From Candidatus Heimdallarchaeota archaeon (GTDB lineage Archaea > Asgardarchaeota > Heimdallarchaeia > Heimdallarchaeales > Heimdallarchaeaceae): a stretch of 64,000 nt of DNA. This document shows, piece after piece, positions 4,766 through 6,373 of the stretch (positions are counted from its first letter, which is position 1; every line of letters begins with the position of its first letter). The stretch spans positions 64,001 to 128,000 of the forward strand of contig JABCTC010000001.1 in assembly GCA_018238545.1 (NCBI GenBank). The letters run 5' to 3'. Below the pieces are notes generated by a model. It was not told the origin of the DNA, made no database searches, and saw only the letters and a list, made by a program, of their open reading frames with translations. Made by a program: the position numbers and the translations under genes.

Positions 4766-4939
4766 TTTGAACAAATCTTGTAGAATTAATATTGTATATA
4801 AGTATTTTTGATAGAAATATGTAAGAAAAATATTACCATAACGTTCATAAAAAAGTAAAAACAATTATGATGAGTTTTTGTCTTGTTGTCATATAAGGAC
4901 AACTTCAGTCGAGTCTTTATTAGAGGTCAACATATAAAA

Positions 4940-6188
4940 CTATAATAGTTCTATACTAACTCTGAGTGGATACATCACGTATCCTCCTACCCCGTTCACC
5001 CTGCGTTTAGGCAAGGCTTTCGGATCGCTTTTGAGTAAAATGTTGTATGCAGCATTGACATCAGCATTAATCAAGAAGCCGTTAGCGGATCTAAACAACC
5101 CTCGAGTAACTCGACGACCATCGTACTTTTTCCTAGCTTTTGGGAATTCATTGTCAAGAAAACTACACTTGGAAGTATATTTTTCGGGAATAAGTTCTAC
5201 CTTTATCCCTCGTTCTGCACCTTTATACTTCAAGATGTTGATGATACGTAGAAAGGGGATGGTGACGAACATCTGGGTGATCTTTTTCCAGAACTGCACC
5301 CCTTGCTTCCACTTCTTGTTGTAACCGATAATGACCTCGTGTAGCCCTCTTTTCTTCCCATAAGTCAAGTAAATAACAAGTGAGTTTGTGGATGGCGTCT
5401 TTTAATTTTCGCCTCCACTTCTCTCGGAGTTTGTAGTAGGTATGACCATATGTCAATCGGTGTTTTCCTTGTAGTTTTTGTCTTTGCTGTTGAGCGTATT
5501 GAATTTGTAATTGTTTCTGTTTTTTCAAATAATATTGTGTTATGGATTTTATCCCTTTCCCTGCATCTTTGATAACAATCGGTTGTCCTCCGAGGTTATC
5601 CACAAAGGTGGCAAGGTTGATCATCCCTAAATCTACTCCACCTTTTCGTATAAGCTTCTTGCGGAGTTTAGGCAAGGTTTTCTGATAAACTAACTCAAGG
5701 GTGTACCCAGGTCTTCTTGGAACGATTCTAACCTCTCGTAAATCAATGTGAGAAGTCAATCGCGTTTTGTAATTGTATCCCACTTTTTTCGGCAGAACCA
5801 GCCATCCATTTACAATCCTTGCTTGTTGGTTAGTGAAGATAGCTACCACTTCTCCATCCTTCTTCTTGTAGTTAGGAGGACGAGGCATAGCGAAGAAATT
5901 TCCAGGGTTGACTTTCCATTCCTTCATCGCTCGAAAATATCCCTTCCAGTTTCGACAGAGGAGTTTGAGGGTTTGTTGGGAAGTCTGAGCTGGTAGAACG
6001 CGATAACATTCTTCGTGGTTAAGTAACTTGTTGAGATCATTGTAAAAGAGTAGTTTATTCTTTTTGTTCAATGAGATTTTTATCAGAAAATTCGCTCGAT
6101 TATAGAGATTTTTTACTTGATGACAAATCTTGCTTAAACTAGGCTGATACTTTACTTCTATACATTCCACCCTAGGAACTTTCGTCAT
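4940..6188 (-). pseudogene. tnpB: RNA-guided endonuclease TnpB (IS200/IS605/IS607 OrfB), split by a 1-nt frameshift near 5350
   Basis: N-terminal KNLYNRAN, RuvC-I GVDLG, PEKYTSKCS, RuvC-III NADVNAAYNIL; removing one A from TGGGAAGAAAAGAGGG joins the two ORFs as LDLWEERGLHEVIIG. Confidence 0.9.
4947..5032 (-). ncRNA. putative omega-RNA scaffold overlapping the tnpB 3' end, with putative guide 4966-4947
   Basis: GC-rich hairpins at the tnpB 3' end; 66-nt ungapped homology to 54105-54170 with covariation. Confidence 0.7.
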
Positions 6189-6373
6189 CTCTTCTTTACC
6201 TAGAGATTCTTATAAAAACTCCCGTAATATTCACTTTAAACCATCCATTTAAACTGATATAGTTGTTAGTTAATATGACTGCATGACAAAAATTCATCAT
6301 ATGACATTTCTAAATTGTCTGGATGGTAAAACAAGGTTTAAAAAAGAACTCATTCGTTACCTTTACCGTAAAA

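Follow-up and report, generated by a model that had tools for sequence, protein, structure and literature searches.

A tnpB-only element with mirrored ends and probable IS607 descent in Heimdall-group archaea

The window considered here, a 64,000-nt stretch of a contig of Candidatus Heimdallarchaeota archaeon, holds a tnpB pseudogene on its reverse strand, set between two host genes and enclosed by a pair of imperfect inverted arms (Table 1). It is one broken copy of an element that is common in Heimdall-group (Asgard) archaea. A +1 frameshift near 5355, absent from the other copies, splits the gene, and the window sequence across this position recurs in a contig of run X3, a run that may be related to the source sample. 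Full-length TnpB is not produced from this copy, but the TnpB of intact copies (415 aa; one such copy lies at C62:104217-105650) could still take up its RNA. Alignment gives the family a rearranged RuvC domain, with D186, a glycine at the canonical glutamate position, an alternative E335, and D376; an E336K change is no loss of the catalytic glutamate, the conserved residue being E335, which is intact. No two copies exceed 97% identity, and although they are thus diverged, their coding sequences show TnpB to be under purifying selection (dN/dS about 0.1). A longer, fused TnpB was not found, which is weak evidence. As regards the surroundings, positions 3093-3155 of the window are 82% identical to 6321-6382 and are a remnant of the beginning of the beta-helix gene, located ahead of the adjacent locus.

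Table 1. Coordinates of the element, its parts and its flanking genes in the window
Feature	Position	Strand	Basis or remark
Host gene on one side, for a hydrophobic protein of 136 aa without family assignment	4454-4864	-	ORF, Pfam, NCBIfam
Predicted true guide, host flank, directed at the empty allele	4847-4866	-	variable at every copy, adjoins the pseudoknot
Whole element, AT counted at both tips, 1434 bp	4867-6300	-	homology between copies stops there
Right-end arm, mirrors the left arm, doubles as 3' part of the guide-RNA scaffold	4867-4896	-	
Predicted omega-RNA scaffold	4867-5028	-	fold z -2.85; 5' limit approximate
Subterminal hairpin, right end	4885-4903	-	folding
tnpB pseudogene	4940-6188	-	ORFs 6188-5223 and 5368-4940; Pfam and NCBIfam TnpB models
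Guide proposed in the preliminary description	4947-4966	-	C-terminal codons of tnpB and conserved scaffold
Scaffold hairpin	4968-4984	-	loop GTGATG (4978-4973) pairs with terminal CATCAT (4872-4867): pseudoknot
Frameshift, one extra A in a purine run, between RuvC-I and RuvC-II	5351-5356	-	absent from other copies
TATA-like box, roughly 21-30 nt ahead of the tnpB start	6209-6218	-	sequence, present in other copies; function inferred
Left-end arm	6271-6300	-	AT, spacer, two TGTC-type motifs, 8-bp period
Insertion target in this copy, CATAT, which is also its predicted TAM	6299-6303	-	TAM activity inferred
Host gene on the other side, for a beta-helix protein that has TSP3 repeats	6323-8173	+	ORF, Pfam

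The element, its ends and its insertion sites

Comparison among copies shows where the element ends, since the homology between them breaks off at 4867 and 6300, and related full elements have a similar extent (1367-1441 bp). The preliminary description had recognized inverted repeats of about 50 bp bracketing tnpB, at 4864-4909 and 6253-6306. The repeats are real; their ungapped match, however, spans about 30 bp (25 of 30 positions identical), beyond which identity sinks to chance level (26/40, 31/50), and a gapped alignment extends to about 60 bp. In a control of 3000 random window pairs, the top pair reached 22/29. Because 6301-6306 and 4864-4866 are host DNA, the string ATATGACA (6299-6306), quoted earlier as the outer end of one repeat, is mostly flank.

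Logos of the family show the same layout at both ends, AT followed by about ten bases and then TGTC twice with an 8-bp period, and the paired motifs of the left arm are candidate recombinase-binding sites. The ends differ at positions 4-9 from the tip, and the left one lacks a conserved hairpin (mean z 0.03). Left and right ends change together: among independent pairs, 8 concordant changes were counted versus 2.1 expected (p about 0.001), one of the 8 being a possible anchoring artefact.

The host's own genome contains 27 related intervals, at least ten of them full length, together with deletion derivatives of 762, 743 and 201 bp that keep both ends; the 201-bp one (C111:9864-10064) is an RNA-only derivative of the main family. 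The family occurs with the same tips in 21 of the 23 other genomes of the genus, and identical tip positions recur in 80 loci of other assemblies. When the flanks of related copies are joined with one AT, gap-free empty alleles result in at least eight cases, some of them within coding sequence. (A/T)TTAT|N is the sequence of these alleles, with one copy of the AT; the element thus inserts at an AT common to both tips, and comparison with the empty alleles shows insertion at (A/T)TTAT with only the AT shared. The logos, anchored on the inner motif only and leaving the left tip unforced, give TTTAT in 18 and ATTAT in 11 of 48 left ends, while 45 of 46 right tips have AT, and the bases outside it are free. 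Given the family consensus, the CATAT site of the window copy is atypical, and an empty allele of this exact site was not present in its own genome; the relatives are too diverged there to supply one. The family must have moved many times, as nearly all of its insertion sites are distinct (75 of 77, with two pairs shared). At one position in sister genomes, two elements that are 68% identical (L128 and L187) occupy exactly the same TTTAT site, by independent insertion or by replacement.

The empty-site comparison of related copies does not place the ends at about 4967 and 6230. As the preliminary description had proposed, the repeats delimit a non-autonomous element; they are not regulator sites of the host genes on either side. 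All strong matches to the ends enclose only tnpB or its deletions; no family ends were found around any other gene. A degenerate end pattern run over the genus matched six ends, and viral contigs yielded neither an end pattern nor a close relative. The assembled contigs of four runs, which can show the presence of a circular joint and not its absence, contained none. We found no published description of the element family in a literature whose coverage was incomplete.

Several other tnpB-only families reside in the same genome (C62:24326-25704, C124, C78, C8:73269-74582, C102:93691-94942, and C62:60084-61829 with 31318-33057). In all of these the left end is preceded by (T)GAT or TTAT and the right tip is CAT, whereas the mirrored motif differs from family to family (TTCCG, TTTACTAG, others). 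The window itself also contains, at 54038-54293 (C43:118038-118293), a 245-bp miniature that follows the same end logic, with a TGTACA motif, a guide-RNA-like hairpin and no gene; six more copies lie on C109, C114, C42, C40, C38 and C43.

The guide RNA scaffold and its predicted guide

The right arm serves a second role, in that the predicted omega-RNA scaffold runs through it. The scaffold region folds better than shuffled sequence does; its consensus helices show compensatory changes, and its conservation extends up to the terminal CATCAT, which can pair with a hairpin loop farther upstream to form a pseudoknot. This loop-tip interaction keeps all six base pairs in 70 of 72 ends, one of the two exceptions being due to a misplaced coordinate, and its two partners covary across related families; at the level of sequence, these comparisons show that the scaffold ends at the right tip. 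In TnpB RNAs, the pseudoknot directly precedes the guide (PMC10711439). Given the pairing of the terminal six bases with the scaffold loop, the guide is predicted to be the host flank at 4866-4847, with (A/T)TTAT in the target as the predicted TAM. Among the guides of 22 copies, no full TAM-adjacent match was found in the genome, the best being 16/20, and Rfam returned no match. On an archaeal plasmid, just downstream of a related tnpB (L234:2730-2900), there is a repeat of about 30 nt in three units with unlike spacers, which looks like a mini CRISPR array.

A different guide had been proposed at the outset, fixed and internal to the element at 4966-4947, with TnpB as the cargo. This segment is conserved in all copies, as such a guide would be, but it lies within the tnpB frame, whose stop is at 4942-4940, and is partly a stem arm in the fold. 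In 21 right ends it is on average identical at 16.5 of 20 positions, compared with 6.7 of 20 for the 20 nt past 4867; moreover, conservation runs 80 nt farther to the tip, up to the last base of the right repeat, and the pseudoknot closes at 4867. The 20 nt beyond the tip, in comparison, differ at every copy. A fixed internal guide is, in our judgment, hardly credible, the segment being coding sequence and conserved scaffold.

Relatives and the mobilizing enzyme

A single shared AT fits the crossover core of a serine recombinase, a 2-bp duplication, or the motif pair of a Y1 transposase, so that other evidence must decide how the element moves. Comparison of relatives shows that those found with a transposase in cis all carry a serine recombinase of the IS607 type. 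The identities of transposase-bearing relatives are 45%, 41% and 38%, next to 34% for Helicobacter pylori IS607 and 32-43% for about ten Asgard loci, and several of the Asgard IS607-bearing relatives end in CAT. The tree support joining the solo clade to them is weak. As every relative found with its own transposase carries an IS607 serine recombinase, we consider the window element to be, somewhat more probably than otherwise, a non-autonomous tnpB-only element of IS607 descent, with crossover at AT by a serine transposase acting in trans. Since it has no tnpA, it is classed as working like IS607 elements and not as a member of that family. Autonomous Asgard IS607 elements (L388-L402) have AT or CT as their end, with the RNA loop changed to match, which suggests that the crossover dinucleotide varies in this lineage.

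A model can be outlined from these features. The transposase, supplied in trans, would bind the paired TGTC motifs, and crossover at the AT would release an excised circle whose joint would be an inverted repeat centred on AT; this circle could then insert into another TTAT. Guided by the 3' flank and recognizing TTAT as its TAM, the TnpB-RNA complex would cut empty alleles and so promote retention of the element, while the element's own TCAT end would escape TnpB cutting. The trans-acting transposase may occur rarely or transiently, may be missing from the assemblies, or may have been lost of late.

As the preliminary description had stated, there is no transposase inside or beside the tnpB element. 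Neither the element nor the surroundings of 80 related copies yielded a serine tnpA; 46 genomes of the order were searched for a matching TnpA without success, and 30 genomes of the family gave no close homologue of the AT-type transposase. Local IS607 transposases do occur in 8 of the 24 genomes of the genus, but they are part of a different element, whose tips are GT-type and whose motifs differ; as mobilizers, the other local IS607 TnpAs were discarded because their tips are GG- or GT-type and their motifs unrelated. The host genome itself has autonomous IS607 elements (C71:12832-15584, C82:18142-20904 and about 15 fragments) that encode a 647-aa TnpB and have apparent GT tips as against GG. 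Tyrosine integrases were discarded as well, as two element-holding genomes (G044 and G040, one of them a single contig) gave no phage-integrase or Xer-type match.

The enzyme might instead belong to the host. Small serine recombinases of 238-249 aa, with the catalytic domain first, are encoded on the chromosome, and if they performed the AT crossover, no transposon-encoded transposase would be needed. They are candidate mobilizers because they are confined to Heimdallarchaeaceae, where they are largely fixed loci, present in 28 of the 30 genomes of the family and in 0 of the 16 other genomes of the order. In two single-contig genomes they are the only serine recombinases found; one single-contig genome holds four to five related solo copies, no IS607 TnpA, and only two such chromosomal genes. 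The correlation is, however, confounded by kinship, and two genomes in which the small serine recombinases were not found, albeit incomplete ones (G024 and G038), have related solo elements. Furthermore, two or three conserved recombinases could hardly serve the several different end motifs of a genome, and none of these motifs occurs near the recombinase genes. All in all, we regard mobilization by these host enzymes as rather unlikely. A broader proposal would answer the difficulty of the many motifs: Heimdallarchaeaceae may move several tnpB-only families by means of domesticated chromosomal serine recombinases, with co-evolving mirror ends, possibly read by left-right or RNA-DNA pairing, that let one host enzyme serve differing ends; this is a speculative and unlikely scheme. 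In the host genome, the small serine recombinase genes lie at C6:7206-7922, C88:39681-40430 and C26:28943-29692, the last among small plasmid- or virus-like genes.

The symmetry of the ends (25/30) recalls a cut-and-paste element of the DDE type, in which the terminal repeats would be genuine and the AT a 2-bp duplication, and DDE-associated TnpBs do have inverted terminal repeats and solo copies that are mobilized in trans (PMC10691335). This comes near the earlier idea that tnpB was captured as cargo by a different transposon with terminal inverted repeats. The evidence does not sustain that idea, as no DDE, IS110, Cas1 or Y1 enzyme was found with these ends and the relatives that have a transposase are of the IS607 type. 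Against a DDE element speak the difference between the ends at positions 4-9, the free base outside the right AT, by which the ends are not TA, and the restriction of all strong end matches to tnpB and its deletions. IS630 and IS110 are absent from the five genomes searched, and no IS4/IS5-like enzyme fits: the resident DDE elements have unrelated repeats, and no DDE transposase sharing these ends was seen among the IS630 and IS4/IS5-like types searched. The AT alone is shared at insertion, and TA ends or a longer duplication were rejected on the empty alleles and the unforced logos. A DDE origin is thus judged quite improbable.

TTTAT and TTCAT are a known motif pair of Y1 transposases. An IS200/IS605-type (IS1341-like) element moved by a Y1 enzyme, with TTAT as left and TCAT as right cleavage motif, is formally compatible with insertion just 3' of TTAT without duplication, and the right end does carry a hairpin. 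The left end, however, has no conserved counterpart, and the ends are inverted, loop included. A Y1 TnpA was found in 0 of the 24 genomes of the genus (72-92% complete), and the Y1 elements of sister genera have unrelated TnpBs, all of which makes this origin very improbable. Still more remote is derivation from an Asgard Cas1 (aCas1)-TnpB transposon. Such loci are flanked by repeats (PMC10691335) and the host is an Asgard archaeon, but Cas1 in the genus is only CRISPR-type or decayed and never adjoins TnpB, with the proviso that CRISPR-type profiles may miss a very diverged aCas1. Decayed solo Cas1 fragments without an array are present in several genomes of the genus (C36:20601-20924 in the host genome; L111-L116).

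Comparison with known systems

The copy in the window, a pseudogene, is ordinary; what matters is the family, which is large and well delimited. Its TnpBs are compact, with a rearranged RuvC, its TAM is predicted to be (A/T)TTAT, the ends of its scaffold are defined and its empty sites known, and its hosts are close archaeal relatives of eukaryotes. On present evidence it adds to the IS607-type ends a fully symmetric variant with an AT core, and it shows that a tnpB with inverted ends around it need not have been captured by a DDE transposon. Were the mobilizer to prove a host recombinase, the family would exemplify selfish DNA that depends on a domesticated enzyme, and would offer a means of insertion that leaves no scar.

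The closest likeness is with the IS607 family. The premise of the preliminary description, that IS607 elements do without long terminal inverted repeats, was overstated, as the ends of this family carry imperfect inverted repeats, short repeated motifs, and one dinucleotide in common with the target (PMC6188088). IS607, IS1535 and ISC1926 (Chen et al. 2018, PMC6188088), together with CboIStron (10.1101/2023.11.20.567912) and ISXfa1 (PMC10711439), resemble the window family in having a dinucleotide at tips and target without further duplication, and in their short repeated motifs (here two TGTC units per end with an 8-bp period) and imperfect inverted repeats. The likeness extends to a TAM that ends in the core, its mimic at the right end, and a pseudoknot that closes on the core, and their TnpB is related to that of the window element; the TGGG/TCGG of CboIStron parallels TTAT/TCAT here (10.1101/2023.11.20.567912). 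IS607 differs in having its own tnpA and a GG core, whereas the window family has an AT core and no tnpA, and searches of the host family turned up no cognate transposase. In addition, the described IS607 repeats lie at unequal distances from the tips, whereas those of the window family are equidistant, which leads to a fully symmetric joint.

With the solo TnpBs (IS1341-type) that are mobilized in trans (Altae-Tran et al. 2023, PMC10691335), the family shares the presence of tnpB only, the multiple copies, the guide taken from the flank, and RNA-only miniatures; the ends associated with Y1 and serine enzymes are described there as asymmetric, while here they are symmetric. DDE-associated TnpBs and Fanzor in transposons with terminal inverted repeats (PMC10691335; PMC10530073; PMC10711439) are alike in their inverted ends, in a guide RNA that passes through the right repeat, and in the rearranged RuvC, and their guides, likewise, begin at the element end or past it. 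They differ from the window family, which has no DDE partner, no duplication past the AT, and degenerate tips. Finally, TnpB2 proteins with a rearranged RuvC, such as TvTnpB (PMC10530073), have a glycine at the canonical RuvC-II glutamate and an alternative glutamate about 47 residues on; the likeness noted is in the RuvC residues. TvTnpB, for its part, is shown together with an IS605 TnpA, and its TAM is NTGAC (PMC10530073).
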